64,000 nucleotides of DNA from a bacterium (GTDB taxonomy: Bacteria > UBA8248 > JACPRG01 > G963555815). This document shows, piece after piece, positions 12,629-53,277 of the stretch (the first letter of the stretch is position 1; each line of letters starts with the position of its first letter). The position numbers and the translations under genes are program-made. The DNA lies in NCBI GenBank assembly GCA_963555815.3, contig CAUVWX020000002.1:480001-544000 (forward strand), given 5' to 3'. Under the pieces are notes generated by a model. It saw only the letters and a program-made list of their open reading frames with translations, ran no database searches and had not been told where the DNA came from.

Positions 12629-14458
12629 CTACAAGATTCGAAGGTCCCTCAAGTTGAGCTGCAGTGTCGTCCGATTGTTCCAACGGTTGAGCTCCGGCGT
12701 GAAGACGAGGTCCACCCGCTGATCCCGGCGGCTCAAGGCTTCAAAACCCTGCCCCGATTCCTGGGTCGTCTGAGCTCCCCGGAAATTTTCCCCTGATCCC
12801 ATTCGAAAGCCGATCACCCCAGCCGCAGCCCGTCCCTGGCGAACCTCGAACTTGAGATGCTGCCCGTCTTTACCCACGTGCTTCACCGGACCCAGCACCT
12901 CGGCTCCATCAAGGAAGAGAAGGGGTTTTGGATTTCGGGATCCGAAGGGAGCCAGCCCCTCGATGGCCTCCATCGTCTGGGGCGTCAGGTCAGACAGGGT
13001 CACCCTCGCCTCCACCTCCAGGCGGGGGACATAATCCTCGGCGGTAAGGCTCTCGGCGGCAATCCTTCGCAAGCGCTCTGCAAACTCGCCAACCCGCTCT
13101 TTTCGGATAACCAGACCCGCCGCATAGTGGTGCCCGCCGAACTGCTCCAGCAGGTCAGAGCAGCGGGAGAGGGCTCGGTGGAGGTGAAGGGCCCGGATGC
13201 TTCGCCCCGAACCCTTCCCCACCTCTCCCTTGAGCCCGATGAGGATCGCAGGGCGGTGGTACTCTTCGACTATCTTGGAAGCCACGATGCCGAGCACCCC
13301 CGTGTGCCAACCTGCCTCGGCCAGGACAATGGGCCCCTCCCCAAGGAATAGATCTCGCTCCACCCTCTCGCGCACCTCTCGATGGAGGTCCTCCTGGACA
13401 CGCTGTCGCTCCTGATTGACGGCATCAAGACGCCCGGCCCCCTCGGCAGCTCGCTTGGCATCCTCCTCGACGAGCAGAGAAAGCCCCTCCCGCGCGTCTC
13501 CCAGGCGTCCCACCGCATTCAACCGAGGGCCCAATTGAAAGCCTACCTGACCCGCGGACACCTCTGCGAGGGGCGCGATCCCCGCGACCCGAAGGAGGGC
13601 CTGGAGCCCCGGCTTTCGAGTCCGGGCCAATTCGGAGAGTCCGTGACGAACGAGGACGCGGTTCTCCCCGCAGAGGGGAACCACATCGGCCACCGTCCCA
13701 AGGGCCACCAGATCCATGTGCTGCCTCAAGTTAGGAAGAGATTCGGCGGCAAAGCCCCGCTCTAGAAGCCTTCGCCGGACAGCGGTCGCCAGCTTGAAAG
13801 TCACCCCCACCCCCGCCAGGTTCTTGTCCGGATACCCGCACCCTGGGCGAAGGGGATCCAGGACGGCCATCGCTGAGGGAAGGGTTGGCGGAGGGTGATG
13901 GTGGTCCGCAATGATGATCTCCAGACCCGCCCGGGACGCCGCCGCCACCTCGGCGACGTTGCTGATCCCCGTGTCCACCGTGATGAGAAGCCCGGCGCCC
14001 TGGGCGGCAAGCCCTAGGAGGGCCGCCTCGTTCAGGCCGTAGCCTTCTCTGAAGCGGTCCGGGACGTAGGTCTCCACCTCTCGACCAAAGGCTCGGAAGA
14101 AATGGACGAGAAGGGCGGCCGAGGTCAAGCCATCCACATCGTAGTCGGCGTAGACAATGATCCGCTCCTCCCCCTCAATGGCCCTTGCGACTCTCTCGGC
14201 CGCTTCTTCCATCCCCGCCATCAGGAAGGGGTCGTGAAGGCGTTCCAGGTCAACCGCCAGGAACTCTTGAGCGGCCGCCTTTTCCCGAATGCCCCTTCTC
14301 CACAAAAGGGTCCCGAGAAGAGGATTTAGGCCAAGGGCGGCGGCGAAACGAAGAACCTCCGGGTCAGGCTCCCCGGGCACCTCCCACCGGAAGCGAAGGC
14401 CCATTTTTGTCGGACTCGTCGGACTCACGGTGAAGGGTTTCCTCGGCGAGGAGATCAA
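12629..14458 (-). CDS. recJ: Single-stranded-DNA exonuclease RecJ
   Basis: YADYDVDG, ITVDTG, DHH, LGTVADVVPL, GSGRS, FGGHHYAAG, APFGSRNP; TTGA overlap with the dacB stop (alternative ATG 14404). Confidence 0.96.
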   Translation of the reverse strand: MISSPRKPFTVSPTSPTKMGLRFRWEVPGEPDPEVLRFAAALGLNPLLGTLLWRRGIREKAAAQEFLAVDLERLHDPFLMAGMEEAAERVARAIEGEERIIVYADYDVDGLTSAALLVHFFRAFGREVETYVPDRFREGYGLNEAALLGLAAQGAGLLITVDTGISNVAEVAAASRAGLEIIIADHHHPPPTLPSAMAVLDPLRPGCGYPDKNLAGVGVTFKLATAVRRRLLERGFAAESLPNLRQHMDLVALGTVADVVPLCGENRVLVRHGLSELARTRKPGLQALLRVAGIAPLAEVSAGQVGFQLGPRLNAVGRLGDAREGLSLLVEEDAKRAAEGAGRLDAVNQERQRVQEDLHREVRERVERDLFLGEGPIVLAEAGWHTGVLGIVASKIVEEYHRPAILIGLKGEVGKGSGRSIRALHLHRALSRCSDLLEQFGGHHYAAGLVIRKERVGEFAERLRRIAAESLTAEDYVPRLEVEARVTLSDLTPQTMEAIEGLAPFGSRNPKPLLFLDGAEVLGPVKHVGKDGQHLKFEVRQGRAAAGVIGFRMGSGENFRGAQTTQESGQGFEALSRRDQRVDLVFTPELNRWNNRTTLQLNLRDLRIL

Positions 14459-15996
14459 CGACTGGGCGAGGTTCGAGCGGGAGAGAAGCCCCGGTTCAGA
14501 TGGACCAGGGCGAGGGCCATCCGGTCCTGGATCACCTTGACCTTCCAGTGGGGACAGGAAGAACCGTTCATCAAGATCGAAAAGGCCAGGACCTCTCCCT
14601 CCCCGGTGACGGCATATCCCGAGAGGGTGTCCACCCCTTTCAGGGAACCCGTCTTCGCCCGGACCCGTCGCTCGCCCCGGGTGTCCTCAAGACGATCTCG
14701 GGCAGAGCCGTCCACGCCCATGACGGACAGGGAGGAAACGAACTCCGACCGATAGCGAAAATCGTTGTACATGTCCTGGAGAACCTTCACGAGCTGCCCT
14801 GGTGAAAGGCGGTTCTCTCTTAAAAGGCCCGAGCCGTCGGCCATCTGAAAGTTTTCGTCGGAGACGCCGAGACGCTTCAGGTAGCTCCCCACCACAGCCA
14901 CCCCTTTTTCCACTGTTCCCGGGGGGCCCTCCGCCTCGGCCCCGAGGACGTTGAGAATTTGCTGTGCCATGAAGTTGTTACTCCACTTGTTCATATCCCA
15001 AAGAATGGAGGCCAGGGACTTTGAGCGGTGCTGGAAGAGGAGTCCCGCTTCAGGGGGGACCGGGCCAAGGCGCACCTCCCCCTCAACGGAGATTCCTCCT
15101 CTTTGGAGAAACTCGACGAACGTATGGCCTAAATAGAGGGCGGGATTCGAGATGGAGACCCAGATCAGTTCTCTCGGGCTTCCAAAGGGGAGATTTCCTT
15201 CAACGATGATCCGGTCCGACCCCGAAAGCGTCTCTCTTAACACCCTAAGGGTCTTGCGCTTGCTCCCGCGCACTGTTTTTGCCCGGTTTAAAAGCTCAAA
15301 GTAAGGGGACGCGGGCTCCAGGACCACGCGAGGAGGTTGACCCGGAGAGGCCCCGGGCTCTGCATGGACTGCAACCGCGTTGAAGTTCAGGGAGGCCGCC
15401 CCGTAGGGGGCCAGATAGGCACGCGCCTTTGTCGGGGAAGGGGGAGGCGACGGGGGACTGGAAAAATAACTGTCGTCAATGACCAAATGCCCCCGAACTT
15501 TTCGCAACCCCAAGGTCCGAAGAGACATGACCAGCTTCAAAAGTTCCTCGGAGACCAAGCTCGGATCTCCAAACCCTTTCAGATAAAGATTGCCCTCAAG
15601 AGTTCCTTCCGAGAGAGAGGTGTCCGAGTGGAGGTCAGTCTTGAAGACATAATCCGACTTGAGAAAGCGAAGGGCTGCAGCCGAGACGAAAAGCTTGATG
15701 TTTGAGGCCGGGACGAAAAGTTCTTCCCCTCGGCGATCGTAGAGAACCTCTTCATTATCAAGGGATAAGACGTGGACCCCCACCCTCGCGTCCGCAAGGC
15801 AGGAATCTTGAAGAAGGCCGCCCAGCTTCGCTTGAAGAGGCGAAGAGGGCTTGGGGGGAGGCTCTTGCGCCAGAAGATGAGGGCTCATCCAAAGAAAGGC
15901 GGCCATAAAAAAGAGCCCGGCAGCCCACCCGCGCCGCCGGAGGCCCCCCTCAGGGCGTCTCCTCACAAATCCTTCTGCCAGCGGGCTAAGGCCCAT
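14455..15996 (-). CDS. dacB: D-Ala-D-Ala carboxypeptidase/endopeptidase PBP4 (S13)
   Basis: PASNIKL (SxxK), GFGDPSL, SNN, DGSGL, KTGSL. Confidence 0.95.
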   Translation of the reverse strand: MGLSPLAEGFVRRRPEGGLRRRGWAAGLFFMAAFLWMSPHLLAQEPPPKPSSPLQAKLGGLLQDSCLADARVGVHVLSLDNEEVLYDRRGEELFVPASNIKLFVSAAALRFLKSDYVFKTDLHSDTSLSEGTLEGNLYLKGFGDPSLVSEELLKLVMSLRTLGLRKVRGHLVIDDSYFSSPPSPPPSPTKARAYLAPYGAASLNFNAVAVHAEPGASPGQPPRVVLEPASPYFELLNRAKTVRGSKRKTLRVLRETLSGSDRIIVEGNLPFGSPRELIWVSISNPALYLGHTFVEFLQRGGISVEGEVRLGPVPPEAGLLFQHRSKSLASILWDMNKWSNNFMAQQILNVLGAEAEGPPGTVEKGVAVVGSYLKRLGVSDENFQMADGSGLLRENRLSPGQLVKVLQDMYNDFRYRSEFVSSLSVMGVDGSARDRLEDTRGERRVRAKTGSLKGVDTLSGYAVTGEGEVLAFSILMNGSSCPHWKVKVIQDRMALALVHLNRGFSPARTSPSR

Positions 15997-16689: not shown

Positions 16690-17712
16690 TCAGCCCGATC
16701 TTCTTGGGACAGGGGGAATTTCGTCGAAGGCCCCAAGGCCGGTGGCGGTTCTGAGGCCTGGGGGTTCTGAAAGGATGTCTTGAACCGCCCGAAGGAGGAT
16801 GGCAATCGTCGCCTCATCACCCCGGATTCCTCCAGGGATCTGCATGCGAACCGAAGGGGCTCCCTCCACCACAATGGCGTCGTGAGGGTCTAGGGCACCG
16901 ATGCGCATCTGAAGGAGGAGGTCAATCACCACCTCCCCGGACAAAAATCCCTTCCCCCTCTGCTCGACCCCTGCCACTTCTCCCCTGCCGACCTCCAGGG
17001 ACCCGGTCGAAAGATCACGCTCGGCCAGAATGGCCTTCTTCTCCTCTTCTACCACATCAAGCTTCCAGCCAAGCCCGTGGGCGATGAGGGCCACAGACTC
17101 CCTGAGGCCCACGTGTCCGAACCGGGGGGAGGCCAGCTCTTTCTGAAAATCCTTCGATGACACACCCATCTTCCTTTGAAGGGGCTCCCGTCGGCTGGCC
17201 AAATCCGCCACCCGCTCCGCCTGGATATTTCCGATCTCCAGGCAATTTCGAGCGAGATCCAGGACGAGGCGGTCCATCACAAAACCTGGGTTGACCCCGG
17301 TCCCCATGACGGCCACCCCTCGCTCTTTCGCCAGCTCGTCCAGCCTTCGGGCCTCATCGGGATGTTGTAGGGGAAGGAAGGAGAGCTCTTCGGCCGATGA
17401 GACGATCCGGCACCCCGCCTCGACGGCCGCCAAGACCTGAGGGCGAACCTCTTCGTAGAAGGAGGAGGTTGTGTGAAGGACGACCTCGGGCCTCACCTTC
17501 GACAGGGTCCCCTCAGGGTCGTCCGAAACCGGGATGCCCAGGGATGATTTCAGACCAAGGACCTGCCCGGCGTCCTGGCCGGCCTTCGCAGGGTCTATAT
17601 CGACCGCCCCTGTCCACTCGATCCAGGGGGACTCCAGGGCACGAAGGGCGAGGGCCCTTCCGATGGCCCCCAGGCCGTAGCTGAGACAGCGAATTTTCCT
17701 ATGTGGAGACAA
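16690..17712 (-). CDS. 2,4-diaminopentanoate dehydrogenase (Ord)-like / DapB-like NAD(P)-dependent amine dehydrogenase
   Basis: YGLGAIG Rossmann motif, VDIDPAKAGQD, SSAEEL, GTGVNPGFVMD, GHVGL.ES, GGIRGD.AT. Confidence 0.85.
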   Translation of the reverse strand: MSPHRKIRCLSYGLGAIGRALALRALESPWIEWTGAVDIDPAKAGQDAGQVLGLKSSLGIPVSDDPEGTLSKVRPEVVLHTTSSFYEEVRPQVLAAVEAGCRIVSSAEELSFLPLQHPDEARRLDELAKERGVAVMGTGVNPGFVMDRLVLDLARNCLEIGNIQAERVADLASRREPLQRKMGVSSKDFQKELASPRFGHVGLRESVALIAHGLGWKLDVVEEEKKAILAERDLSTGSLEVGRGEVAGVEQRGKGFLSGEVVIDLLLQMRIGALDPHDAIVVEGAPSVRMQIPGGIRGDEATIAILLRAVQDILSEPPGLRTATGLGAFDEIPPVPRRSG

Positions 17713-17799
17713 AAAGGGCCTCCGCTCGTGACGAAAGAGCGTCCCTCTGAAATCCTTCCCCGAGGGTCGGCGAGAAGTTTTCGGGGGGCGAGGTTTCCG

Positions 17800-18321
17800 T
17801 TAAAGCCAGCGAAGGGTGTTCACGATGAGGCTTTCACTTGGGCGATCGGAGAAATCTTTCCCGATATGTTGAAAGCGAATGACCCCTTCCGCGTCGATGA
17901 TGAAGGTGGCGGGGCGGGAGATACCCTCTTGAGGGTGGAGAACCCCGAAGCGCCTGATGATCTCTCGATTCGAATCCGGCAGCACGGTATAGGTGAGCTG
18001 AAGCGCCTCAATAGTCATCTCGGCGGTCTCGGCATCGTCCGCGCTGAGGGCCACAAGAGAAGCCCCCAACCCTTTTATCTCCTCCAAGTGCTTCTCCAGC
18101 TCGACCAGCTGGTTTCTGCAAACACTTCAGAAGAGCCCCCGGTAAAAGACGAGGACGACGGGCCCCTTTTTAATGGCCTCCTCGAGCTTGAAATTAGCCA
18201 CCTCAAAGGCCGGCGCCCTGTCTCCCTCAGGGACTGGGTCAAACGGCCCCGCCCAAAGGGGCGACGCCAGGAAGAGCAACAGGAGAAATGGAAGGAAAAG
18301 ATACGAACGAACCACCTTCAT
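17800..18321 (-). CDS. Selenocysteine-containing exported peroxiredoxin-like (AhpC/TSA, thioredoxin-fold) protein, 173 aa, UxxC motif
   Basis: ORF-track pieces 18127..18630 and 17800..18087 share a frame joined by TGA at 18129-18127: VVLVFYRGLF-U-SVCRNQL, matching the family FYRGxWCPxC motif; signal peptide, GGAGG RBS, C-terminal RPATFIID..G.IRF. Confidence 0.9.
18086..18129 (-). promoter_or_regulatory. Bacterial SECIS element
   Basis: UGA-AGUGUUUGCAGAAA-CCAGCU-GGUCG-AGCUGG-AG-AAGCACUU: 6-bp apical stem, G-initiated loop 21 nt after UGA, 8-bp basal stem. Confidence 0.8.
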
Positions 18322-18365
18322 GGTCTTCCCTCCTGCGGTGACAGTATGGCTCTCAAGACTTTCTA

Positions 18366-18393
18366 AATTTACCATAGACGGGGCCCGTTGACA
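18366..18393 (-). promoter_or_regulatory. Putative sigma70 promoter for the selenoprotein gene
   Basis: TTGTCA, 16 nt, TAAATT with extended TG; spacer contains the palindrome ACGGGCCCGT. Confidence 0.4.
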
Positions 18394-18435
18394 AGCGAAG
18401 CCGCCCGAAAAAGTCGATTCAGCGAAGCCCTTTTG

Positions 18436-18464
18436 TTGACCTGGCGATCGGCTGGTGTTAAGAT
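18436..18464 (+). promoter_or_regulatory. Sigma70 promoter for the ABC transporter operon
   Basis: TTGACC, 17 nt, TAAGAT with extended TG; supports a start at 18508. Confidence 0.6.
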
Positions 18465-18507
18465 TTTTTGGATGGGTGACTCTCCCTGCTTTCGCTCTTT
18501 TTTCTCT

Positions 18508-20124
18508 ATGCGACAACGCGCCCTTTATTTCCTGCTCTTCGTCATCGTGCTGGTCCCCACTGCCTGCGGACAAGGGGACCAAAACGGTCTCAAGATTTTG
18601 ACCGTTGGTCTCGAGGCCAACCCCACCCATCTGGACCCCCGTTTTTCTCTAGACGTGGCTTCGGCCCGGGTGACCCAGCTCGTTTTCAACGGCCTCCTTC
18701 GAAAGGACCGCCGCTCCCAGATCGTGCCAGACCTCGCCCTCCGGTGGGAGCATCCGGAACCAACCATTTATGTCTTCCATCTCCGGCAGGATGTTCAGTT
18801 CCACAATGGGCAGCCCTTCACCTCGGCCGACGTGGCCTACACCTTCCGCTCTATCCTGGACTCGACCCTGGGCTCTCCCAAGCTGGGGAGCTACCAAGTC
18901 ATCCAGGAGATCGAGACCCCGGACCCCCAGACCGTTGTCTTTCACCTGAAGGAGCCCTTCGCCCCTTTCCTGGCCCAGATGGTGGCCCCCATTGTGCCCC
19001 ATCAGGCGGGGAAGGAAATCGCTCACTTCAGGGAACACCCCATCGGGACCGGACCCTTTCAATTTGAGGATTTTAGGTCTGACGAACGGGTCGAGCTCTC
19101 CGCCTATGCGGAATATCACGAGGGAAGGCCGAAACTGGACCGGGTGGTCTACCGAATCATCCCGGACGGGACGGTGAGGCGTCTCGAGCTTGAACGGGGC
19201 GGGCTGGACCTGGTGGTAAACGCCCTCTTGCCTGAGAGTCTGAAAAGGCTCGCGACCCGGCCCCACCTCAAAATTGAGCGCGCCCCCGGGACAAATTTCA
19301 CCTATCTTGGCTTCAACCTGCAGGACCCCATCTTGAGCCGTCCAAAAGTCCGCCTCGCCTTTGCCCACGCCATCGACCGGGCGGCCATCATCCAACACGT
19401 CCTAAAGGGACTCGCCCGGCCCGCTCGAAGCCTCCTGGCGGAGACTCACTGGGCCCATGCTGGGGACGTCGCCACATACCCCTACGACCCGGACCGGGCC
19501 CGTCAGCTCCTGGATGAGGCCGGTCTGCAGGACCCTGACGGACCGGGGCCTGAGCCCCGCTTTCGCCTGGTCTTCAAGACCTCTCAGAACGAGGTCCGCC
19601 GCCAAGTGGCCGAGGTGATTCAGGCCCAGCTCCAGCAGCTTGGGGTCGAGGTCCAGATCCGTAGCTTCGAGTGGGGGACCTTCTTCTCGGACATCCGGAG
19701 TGGAAATTTCCAGATCTTCGCCCTCACCTGGGTCGGTGTCCTGGACCCAGACATCTACCACTACATCTTCCACTCCTCGAGCGTCCCCCCTTCGGGGGCC
19801 AACCGGGGGCGTTATCTAAACCCAGAGATGGACCGCCTCTTGGAGGAGGGCCGCCGGCTCCTCGACCTTCAGGCAAGGAAAGGGATCTATGACCAGGTCC
19901 AACAGATCCTGGCCCAGGACCTTCCCTACCTGTCTCTGTGGCATTCGACCCACGTGGCCGTCATGCGAAAGGAAGTCCAAGGGTTTGAACTTTATCCCGA
20001 CGAGTCCATGCGCACCCTAAAGGATGTAGACCTCTTGCCTGGGCCCACCACTTCTTCTTCTCCCATCGACCCTTTGGCGAACCCCCTCTGCCAGGGGTGC
20101 GAGCCTCTGTCCAGGCCCTCATAA
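18508..20124 (+). CDS. ABC transporter substrate-binding lipoprotein, peptide/nickel family 5
   Basis: Signal ending VPTAC; PDLALRW, LRQDVQFHNG.PFTSADV, PIGTGPF, VRLAFAHAIDR. Confidence 0.93.
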   Translation: MRQRALYFLLFVIVLVPTACGQGDQNGLKILTVGLEANPTHLDPRFSLDVASARVTQLVFNGLLRKDRRSQIVPDLALRWEHPEPTIYVFHLRQDVQFHNGQPFTSADVAYTFRSILDSTLGSPKLGSYQVIQEIETPDPQTVVFHLKEPFAPFLAQMVAPIVPHQAGKEIAHFREHPIGTGPFQFEDFRSDERVELSAYAEYHEGRPKLDRVVYRIIPDGTVRRLELERGGLDLVVNALLPESLKRLATRPHLKIERAPGTNFTYLGFNLQDPILSRPKVRLAFAHAIDRAAIIQHVLKGLARPARSLLAETHWAHAGDVATYPYDPDRARQLLDEAGLQDPDGPGPEPRFRLVFKTSQNEVRRQVAEVIQAQLQQLGVEVQIRSFEWGTFFSDIRSGNFQIFALTWVGVLDPDIYHYIFHSSSVPPSGANRGRYLNPEMDRLLEEGRRLLDLQARKGIYDQVQQILAQDLPYLSLWHSTHVAVMRKEVQGFELYPDESMRTLKDVDLLPGPTTSSSPIDPLANPLCQGCEPLSRPS

Positions 20125-21936: not shown

Positions 21937-22305
21937 TCAGCTGCTCGAGCCGTCCGGGGGATGGAGGGTGATCCGGTGCTCTGGGTCGAAGAAATTGAAG
22001 TTAACGCTGTGACAAACCCGGCACTCTCGGGCCTCGCGAAACTCTCGGACCTCGTACTGGGGGGCTACCTCTGCGACGTGACGATCGGCTATAAAATCCC
22101 GATGGACATGGCAGGACTGGCAATAGTTGTTGATGATCCGGTTATTTTGCGTGGGGGGAAACTTTCCCTTCAGGGCCGCCTTGAGGGGATCGCGAGTACA
22201 AGCGGCCAAAGACAAAAATAGGACACAAAGACCGAGAAAGAAAATCCCCCCGCCGCTTGAATGTCTTTTTCCTCTTTTCGCCGGAAGGTTTTGGGCCATG
22301 GGCAC
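21937..22305 (-). CDS. Small dihaem c-type cytochrome lipoprotein
   Basis: Lipobox LAAC; two haem-binding motifs CQSCH and CRVCH. Confidence 0.75.
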   Translation of the reverse strand: MPMAQNLPAKRGKRHSSGGGIFFLGLCVLFLSLAACTRDPLKAALKGKFPPTQNNRIINNYCQSCHVHRDFIADRHVAEVAPQYEVREFREARECRVCHSVNFNFFDPEHRITLHPPDGSSS

Positions 22306-52847: not shown

Positions 52848-53085
52848 GGTGGGTCCGGCCGCCTCTCTTGCTCTGGGCCGAGGCTAACTCTTACGCGAAA
52901 TCCCATACTCTTAAGAGGCATGCCGAAAGAACACCCGCTGCCATCCTTAGAGACGGGCCCTGAGGCCATCGTCTCGGACAGTTCAAGCTCTCCCCGATAC
53001 TGCCTTCCCATCTCCGAGAGGCTGCTCCGACCCGCTGATGGCGACCCATCCTGTTGTCACGGTCGGAGCAGACCCGCCTATTTCA

Positions 53086-53255
53086 GTCCCCTGCCGCAAT
53101 GCCGTGTGGACGAGATTTCGAACCTGGTCACCAAGTGGGCACCGGTAGGCCGCTTTAGGCTCTCTCCATAGGAGGTGCTCACCACGGCCGATCCCAGCTC
53201 CCAGGTTTCATCTGTTGGTTCAAAATTTCATTCCATCACGAACATGACAGGGGAA
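53086..53255 (-). ncRNA. ssrS: 6S RNA
   Basis: Canonical position between zapA and fau; terminal stem UCCCCUGUC/GGCAGGGGA, inner UUGAACC/GGUUCGA, GGGAGC..CCCAC elements and a central bubble; ~170 nt, ends approximate. Confidence 0.9.
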
Positions 53256-53277
53256 CACTTACCGGACCTCCTTTGAC

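Follow-up and report, generated by a model that had tools for sequence, protein, structure and literature searches.

Does the in-frame TGA of a split gene encode selenocysteine (Sec), and what would the full-length protein do? The question is raised by positions 17800..18321 (reverse strand) of the window, the 64,000-nucleotide stretch of bacterial DNA analysed here. Under genetic code table 11 the frame is split into the ORFs 18127..18630 and 17800..18087. Translation with TGA read as U joined both fragments, as the preliminary description had claimed, into one frame of 173 codons that starts with ATG at 18321, ends with TAA at 17802-17800 and holds a single in-frame TGA at codon 65 (18127..18129, reverse strand), the predicted Sec codon. 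The read-through protein of 173 aa has an AhpC/TSA (Prx-like) fold with a UxxC motif and reads FYRGLF-U-SV-C-RNQL around the recoded residue U65. The splitting by gene callers that had been anticipated is visible in the databases, where the 95-aa downstream part has a separate protein entry (P0003). The ribosome-binding site described earlier is a Shine-Dalgarno sequence, AGGAGG, at 18329..18334 (reverse strand), 7 nt 5' of the ATG. Further upstream, a sigma-70-like promoter match, by consensus only, was found at 18366..18394 (reverse strand; two matches against 0.9 expected in shuffled sequences), and a weak terminator-like hairpin, which may be due to chance, lies 3' of the gene at 17719..17737 (reverse strand; 12 found in the region against 8.9 expected).

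Contigs assembled from six of eight public sequencing runs covered the codon at 18127-18129, and in none of them was another letter present at these positions, although the window may itself derive from one of the runs (X2). The same contigs do vary at other positions. An assembly error is therefore not the origin of the TGA, and the codons TGC, TGT and TGG, named in the preliminary description as refuting if seen in reads, did not appear in these contigs. One metatranscriptome run and X16 gave no coverage of the gene, and no conclusion was drawn from them. Run contigs other than the gene's own matched 17646-17682 and 18127-18160; they apparently stem from relatives in which the active-site DNA and the beginning of the following gene are shared. 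An Rfam scan of the window returned only a 6S RNA, located at 53085-53256 (reverse strand), and no SECIS family.

Selenocysteine decoding and conservation across the phylum

The source genome (2.08 Mb, 95.7% complete) contains adjacent selA and selB genes, a selD gene with its own TGA and a tRNA-SeC(tca). The search for selA, selB, selC and selD that the preliminary description had called for thus detected the complete set, in agreement with its claim that the organism decodes Sec. The gene selA was also present in all five relatives tested.

The distribution of the gene was assessed with a profile built from 29 orthologues and run on 51 genomes of the phylum, all of a single class. A full-length match at E 2e-65 or better with exactly one TGA was obtained in 49 of them. 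In the 50th genome (G023) the 5' half including the TGA is present and cut at a contig end, and in the 51st (G022), which gave no match, the contig stops inside dacB, normally the downstream neighbour of the Sec gene. Among the 50 genomes with the gene no reversion to Cys was observed, and a TGA copy occurred wherever the assembly covers the place. Thirty loci were translated individually, and the other 19 full-length orthologues rest on the stop count only. All 30 translated loci share the motif FY[RW]Gx[FY]-U-xx-C with the TGA at the identical position. The one-TGA matches in 49 of 51 genomes and the same motif position in 30 of 30 loci place the TGA beyond chance. In relatives, where a Cys or TGA at codon 65 had been expected, TGA was found in 30/30 loci; of the 233 homologue rows that align at both positions of the motif, 195 have CxxC. 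The Sec read-through proposed for this TGA is supported by the presence of selABCD together with conservation of the TGA at a Cys position. The gene is nearly a core gene in a phylum rich in selenoproteins, and its split database annotation is thereby repaired.

A SECIS-like stem-loop consisting of a lower stem, an internal loop and an upper hairpin was predicted by mRNA folding at 18086..18127 (reverse strand). Its upper hairpin, CCAGCU-GGUCG-AGCUGG, occupies 18112-18096 (reverse strand), and the apical loop GGUCG begins 20 nt 3' of the UGA. In synonymous resampling an intact inner stem of four base pairs was expected in 20.1 of the 30 orthologues and was present in all 30, which include kin and are not independent. 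One hairpin pair exhibited compensatory change (G-C in 19, A-U in 10, G-U in one, no mismatch), and the outer pair was broken in 10 orthologues. Comparable hairpins accompany 8249 of the 64303 TGA triplets genome-wide. Fold energy was unremarkable and was rejected as evidence for a SECIS element: the mean z over orthologues was -0.25 against synonymous variants, and a stretch of 91 nt gave a z of -2.46 but three others only values between -0.27 and -1.53. The hairpin supports Sec decoding, but is a weak argument alone; the case is carried by a TGA that is conserved where homologues have Cys. SelB would almost certainly bind the hairpin 3' of the UGA and insert Sec65. A genuine stop at this TGA, in a pseudogene or between two separate genes, or its decoding as Trp or Cys, is extremely improbable. 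Three distant deposited homologues (P0005, P0015 and P0161) do carry Trp at the Sec position, but the same TGA is retained phylum-wide at about 40% identity, many orthologues use TGA as their normal stop, and the genome encodes tRNA-Sec together with selABD.

Fold, family placement and predicted export

The read-through protein matched the Pfam family PF00578 (AhpC-TSA) with 99.9 bits at a cut-off of 26. Its AlphaFold2 model had a mean pLDDT of 89.3, with low values over residues 1-30, and the best Foldseek match of the model was Bcp4 (3hjp, TMq 0.78). The fold is thus like that of the BCP/PrxQ and AhpE peroxiredoxins (3hjp, 1xxu), and the active site differs. In the alignment Arg61 falls on the Pro and Sec65 on the Thr of PxxxTxxC, Cys68 on the peroxidatic Cys and Pro137 on the catalytic Arg, so that the triad Pro, Thr, Arg of these enzymes is replaced by Arg61, Sec65 and Pro137. 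Because U65 takes the position of the N-terminal nucleophile of thioredoxins and C68 that of the peroxidatic Cys, the protein is not a Sec peroxiredoxin. Membership among true peroxiredoxins (AhpC, BCP/PrxQ, Sec-Prx of the TxxU type) was rejected, as neither PxxxT/SxxC(U) nor the catalytic Arg is kept. From alignment and structural model, the protein is predicted to combine a Prx-like scaffold with a UxxC centre of thioredoxin type. The earlier proposal that the TGA sits at the catalytic Cys holds in so far as it aligns with the first Cys of the FYRGxWCPxC motif, which was indeed seen among the Cys homologues; the position of the peroxidatic Cys is that of C68.

Residue Cys68 (18118..18120, reverse strand), the predicted resolving residue, is invariant in 29/29 aligned orthologues, and the mature protein contains no further Cys. 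A Pro after U is absent in all 30 orthologues. Invariant residues further include His129, Arg136-Pro137 (17911..17916, reverse strand) and the C-terminal Asp159-Arg160-Pro161 (17839..17847, reverse strand); Pro137 stands at the cis-Pro position of thioredoxins, where peroxiredoxins have the catalytic Arg. In the 233 homologue rows SxxC occurred 23 times and WxxC three times besides CxxC, and at the Sec position Ser was seen in 26 rows and Trp in three. The Trp of the deposited sequences P0005, P0015 and P0161 may be a TGA rendered as Trp by a pipeline. In a quick tree of 70 rows, 19 Sec sequences formed one fork that contained no Cys protein (SH-aLRT 89); the tree is too weak for dating the origin of Sec.

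Fifteen NCBIfam models matched, none at its own cut-off, and the Prx models scored far below theirs. WCxxC is the motif of the TlpA/ResA/DsbE group; the ResA model reached 44.9 bits (cut-off 170) and the DsbE model 29.8 (cut-off 123), which places the protein outside this group. The model NF040769 for SelL-related redox proteins, with 68.7 bits, also stayed below its cut-off of 120. The homologue P0032 carries the NCBI name 'peroxiredoxin-like family protein', and the CDD family PRX_like2 (cd02970) is a candidate family for the Sec protein. With its PF00578 domain, a UxxC motif whose UGA lies at the Cys of homologues, selABCD in the genome and a 3' hairpin, the gene fits the Prx-like UxxC (PF00578) selenoproteins, a family already known. 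The preliminary description was right to call Prx-like selenoproteins a recognised class: Prx-like thiol:disulfide oxidoreductases of PF00578 with UxxC or UxxU are catalogued as a predicted selenoprotein family, with WP_010940744.1 as an example, in three publications (PMC9312934, PMC13188914, PMC2398784), and the GOS survey counted 225 sequences of 'Prx-like 1' (PMC2398784). Compared by description, the Sec protein shares the Pfam family, UxxC, Cys homologues and a UGA with a 3' hairpin with these members, and adds a predicted signal peptide and phylum-wide fixation. The terms 'signal peptide' and 'periplasm' are absent from the main text of PMC2398784 and PMC13188914. The gene is real but mostly ordinary, since its family is known. 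A conserved, single-copy member with predicted export would nevertheless be a clean target for assays in a family for which the reviews consulted give no tested function. No 'UBA8248' entry was found in the BSepDB supplement; BSepDB itself may already include the gene or orthologues of it. In the titles and abstract starts searched, subscription papers being outside the scope, no prior statement on a periplasmic selenoprotein or on a link between a selenoprotein and missing DsbB was found.

A Sec-pathway signal peptide is predicted for residues 1-24 (18250..18321, reverse strand) by a hydrophobicity heuristic, and the model has low pLDDT over residues 1-30. According to this heuristic the N-terminus consists of basic residues and a hydrophobic core followed by ..PLWA. 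The same basic-then-hydrophobic pattern, in divergent sequence, was predicted in all 29 full-length orthologues, consistent with the earlier claim of an exported protein. The signal peptide is very probably cleaved after Ala24, which would make the protein periplasmic. The heuristic basis of the export call and a Leu in place of Ala at position -3 leave some room for an N-terminus that stays uncleaved as a membrane anchor, or for a cytoplasmic catalytic domain. Such a topology is very unlikely in view of the basic n-region and hydrophobic core kept in 29/29 divergent sequences, the mostly small-residue c-regions and the contrast with the paralogue L058, which lacks this segment.

Export combined with the missing Pro had been called unusual, a view that did not hold. 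In a set of 122 Cys homologues with a single domain, the N-terminus was hydrophobic in 64, the Pro was present in 83 and missing in 39, and 15 look exported and lack the Pro. By these counts, export and an absent Pro are both ordinary in the family. Two other Sec proteins of thioredoxin fold in the source genome (L046 and L061) also have signal-like N-termini, and three further Sec paralogues with predicted export were found in the genomes G002, G006 and G045. Exported bacterial selenoproteins were already known from SaoB, a substrate-binding protein that likewise contains Sec, has an N-terminal signal sequence (predicted in our case) and is split by annotation, and whose fold and function are unrelated to the Sec protein (bioRxiv 10.1101/2022.07.06.499078).

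Candidate functions in the periplasm

Reading frame, motif, Sec machinery, phylum-wide TGA conservation and fold class being established, the gene encodes a predicted exported UxxC oxidoreductase, which we assign with modest confidence to the periplasmic thiol-disulfide reductases fed by CcdA. The selenolate of Sec65 would probably attack a disulfide or an oxidised Cys of an envelope protein or, less efficiently, a peroxide, after which Cys68 would resolve the intermediate to a selenylsulfide. CcdA may well re-reduce the protein with electrons from cytoplasmic thioredoxin, either directly or through a TlpA. Judged from the alignment, the retained cis-Pro position, the absent Prx triad and the lack of a second Cys in the mature chain speak for a reductase. 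Replacement of Cys by Sec shifts a CxxC motif to a lower redox potential, which favours reduction. A precedent for such a reductase, and the nearest analogue with tests behind it, is the exported PrxL of Caulobacter, which ScsB keeps reduced (PMC3322552). A DsbD_TM/CcdA-like match was present in all 51 genomes, with 45 over the cut-off; in family f2 many matches were fragmented and weak (E 1e-4 to 1e-8). The source genome has one CcdA gene, which adjoins the gene of an exported Sec-containing TlpA close to cox1, and the Sec gene is unlinked to it. This ccdA-tlpA pair beside cox1 may serve oxidase assembly instead, which counts against a reductase fed by CcdA, and a bias towards even Cys counts in exported proteins of a genome without DsbB or VKOR leaves room for an oxidising role. 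The gene of the TlpA in question (L044, G000:C1:625536-629180, motif WATW-U-PYC) lies beside the single ccdA, immediately 5' of cox1, and the two likely form a Sec-dependent reducing pathway for oxidase assembly.

A periplasmic, GPx-like peroxide scavenger, in which the selenolate would reduce H2O2 or organic peroxides with stabilisation by Arg136, His129 and Arg160, is rather unlikely. Selenols react fast with peroxide, the solved structures most similar in fold are those of peroxiredoxins (Bcp4, AhpE), an invariant Arg stands beside the cis-Pro with the catalytic Arg of peroxiredoxins one residue on, and the genome contains an aerobic respiration gene. However, PxxxTxxC and the position of the catalytic Arg are not kept, and all Prx models of NCBIfam score far under their cut-offs. 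Moreover, Caulobacter PrxL (cd02969), which is exported and kept reduced by ScsB, had no detectable peroxidase activity (PMC3322552). PrxL and the Sec protein have in common export (predicted for the latter), a Prx-like scaffold without the Prx catalytic residues and two redox residues. In PrxL these are two distant Cys and the gene lies near scsB, whereas the Sec protein has UxxC and is unlinked to a DsbD-family gene (PMC3322552). Membership in the PrxL family (cd02969) was rejected, with UxxC as the only motif and genes for an ABC binding protein and DacB as neighbours.

The divergent neighbour at 18388..20124 (forward strand) encodes an ABC substrate-binding protein (family 5) and is conserved upstream in 25/30 loci. 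The gene dacB (peptidase S13; 14455..15996, reverse strand), a part of the context and not of the gene, is found in 30/30 loci with conserved Cys66 and Cys481. Between them, at 16690-17712 (reverse strand), lies a 2,4-diaminopentanoate dehydrogenase-like (Ord-like) gene below the NCBIfam cut-off, which follows the Sec gene in family f1 only. A functional link to this downstream gene was rejected, with adjacency in only 5 of 30 loci. The frame at 21937-22305 (reverse strand) encodes a small protein, predicted to be a lipoprotein, which has two heme-binding CxxCH motifs and only weak Pfam matches. The pair Cys66/Cys481 of DacB is likely a structural disulfide. Among solved DacB proteins (six distinct sequences) the pair is absent in the three alignments shown.

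In place of reduction, the Sec protein could act as a DsbB-independent thiol oxidase or isomerase. Its selenylsulfide form would then hand disulfides on to exported proteins, DacB among them, and O2, H2O2 or a small-molecule oxidant would oxidise the selenol again; this we consider unlikely. DsbB was found in none and VKOR in one of the 51 phylum genomes, in searches whose controls behaved as expected, and none of the source genome's membrane proteins was seen to be DsbB-like with a CxxC, although a divergent DsbB could be missed. The only DsbA-family match of the source genome is a Sec protein without signal peptide, and a heme-copper oxidase is present. In this one genome, with rough gene and signal-peptide calls, 72 of 115 predicted exported proteins have no Cys, 10 have one, 24 two and three have three, in contrast to the steady fall among 963 predicted cytoplasmic proteins (179 with one, 153 with two and 107 with three). 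The bias of exported proteins towards even counts persisted after removal of CxxC (Fisher p 0.003-0.025 at three thresholds). The Cys66/Cys481 pair of DacB in 30/30 loci and the location of dacB at most 2.5 kb away in 43 of 49 genomes would also suit an oxidase. Precedents are the catalysis of oxidative folding by diselenides (PMC2672033) and SdbA of Streptococcus gordonii, a disulfide catalyst that acts without DsbB (PMC12453122). Compared by description, SdbA and the Sec protein are both AhpC/TSA-family proteins of the CxxC type, exported (as predicted here) and without a DsbB-type partner, but SdbA is a shown oxidase with Cys (PMC12453122), whereas the Sec protein is a predicted oxidoreductase with Sec.

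On the other side, nothing ties the Cys bias, which stems from one genome and heuristic calls, to the Sec protein: other exported TlpA-like proteins of the source genome are equally good candidates, as is an exported DsbA/ScsC-like protein in many f2 genomes (11 of 25 loci inspected). The link to dacB is broken in all five genomes of family f1 outside g1 (on other contigs in four, far off on a closed chromosome in one). Synteny around dacB runs on to recJ and an ABC operon, as ancestral synteny would, and promoter- and terminator-like sites flank the Sec gene itself. The wider idea that the phylum makes periplasmic disulfides without DsbB or VKOR, with a universal exported selenoprotein as a DsbA/DsbB replacement re-oxidised by air or peroxide and kept beside its client DacB, appears decidedly doubtful. 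If the Sec protein were an oxidase, it would represent a new route to periplasmic disulfide formation, and the even-Cys bias in the face of missing DsbB and VKOR deserves a test whichever protein is responsible.

Further selenoprotein candidates in the genome

When the genome was scanned for TGA codons that have coding-like flanks and are followed by a hairpin, 66 candidates passed, among which the Sec gene ranked first. Nineteen others were chosen for read-through translation; 15 of them hit Pfam families in which selenoproteins are typical (two AhpD/CMD, two deiodinase-like, two Grx, DsbA, HMA, ArsC, rhodanese, radical SAM, SelD and three AhpC/TSA or TlpA proteins) and four matched nothing. 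At least 15 Pfam-backed read-through candidates are thus found among L046-L063 on C1 and C2 of the source genome. In the BSepDB table of the ten bacteria richest in selenoproteins, with 48-54 genes each, members of UBA8248 carry names of the Nitrospinota type (PMC13326102). UBA8248 is also the probable phylum of the source genome.

Several candidates are of interest in their own right. L052 is a Grx fused to a thioredoxin-reductase-like domain, L051 an HMA protein with CxxU, and L056 a B12-binding radical SAM protein that ends in WYC-U plus 11 residues. At L058:255-785 a second Prx-like UxxC selenoprotein (FYRGHW-U-HFC) without signal peptide is encoded. It is accompanied at L058:799-966 (reverse strand) by a short frame with GYCPC-U, a strong hairpin and no Pfam match, possibly a small selenoprotein or a product of chance.
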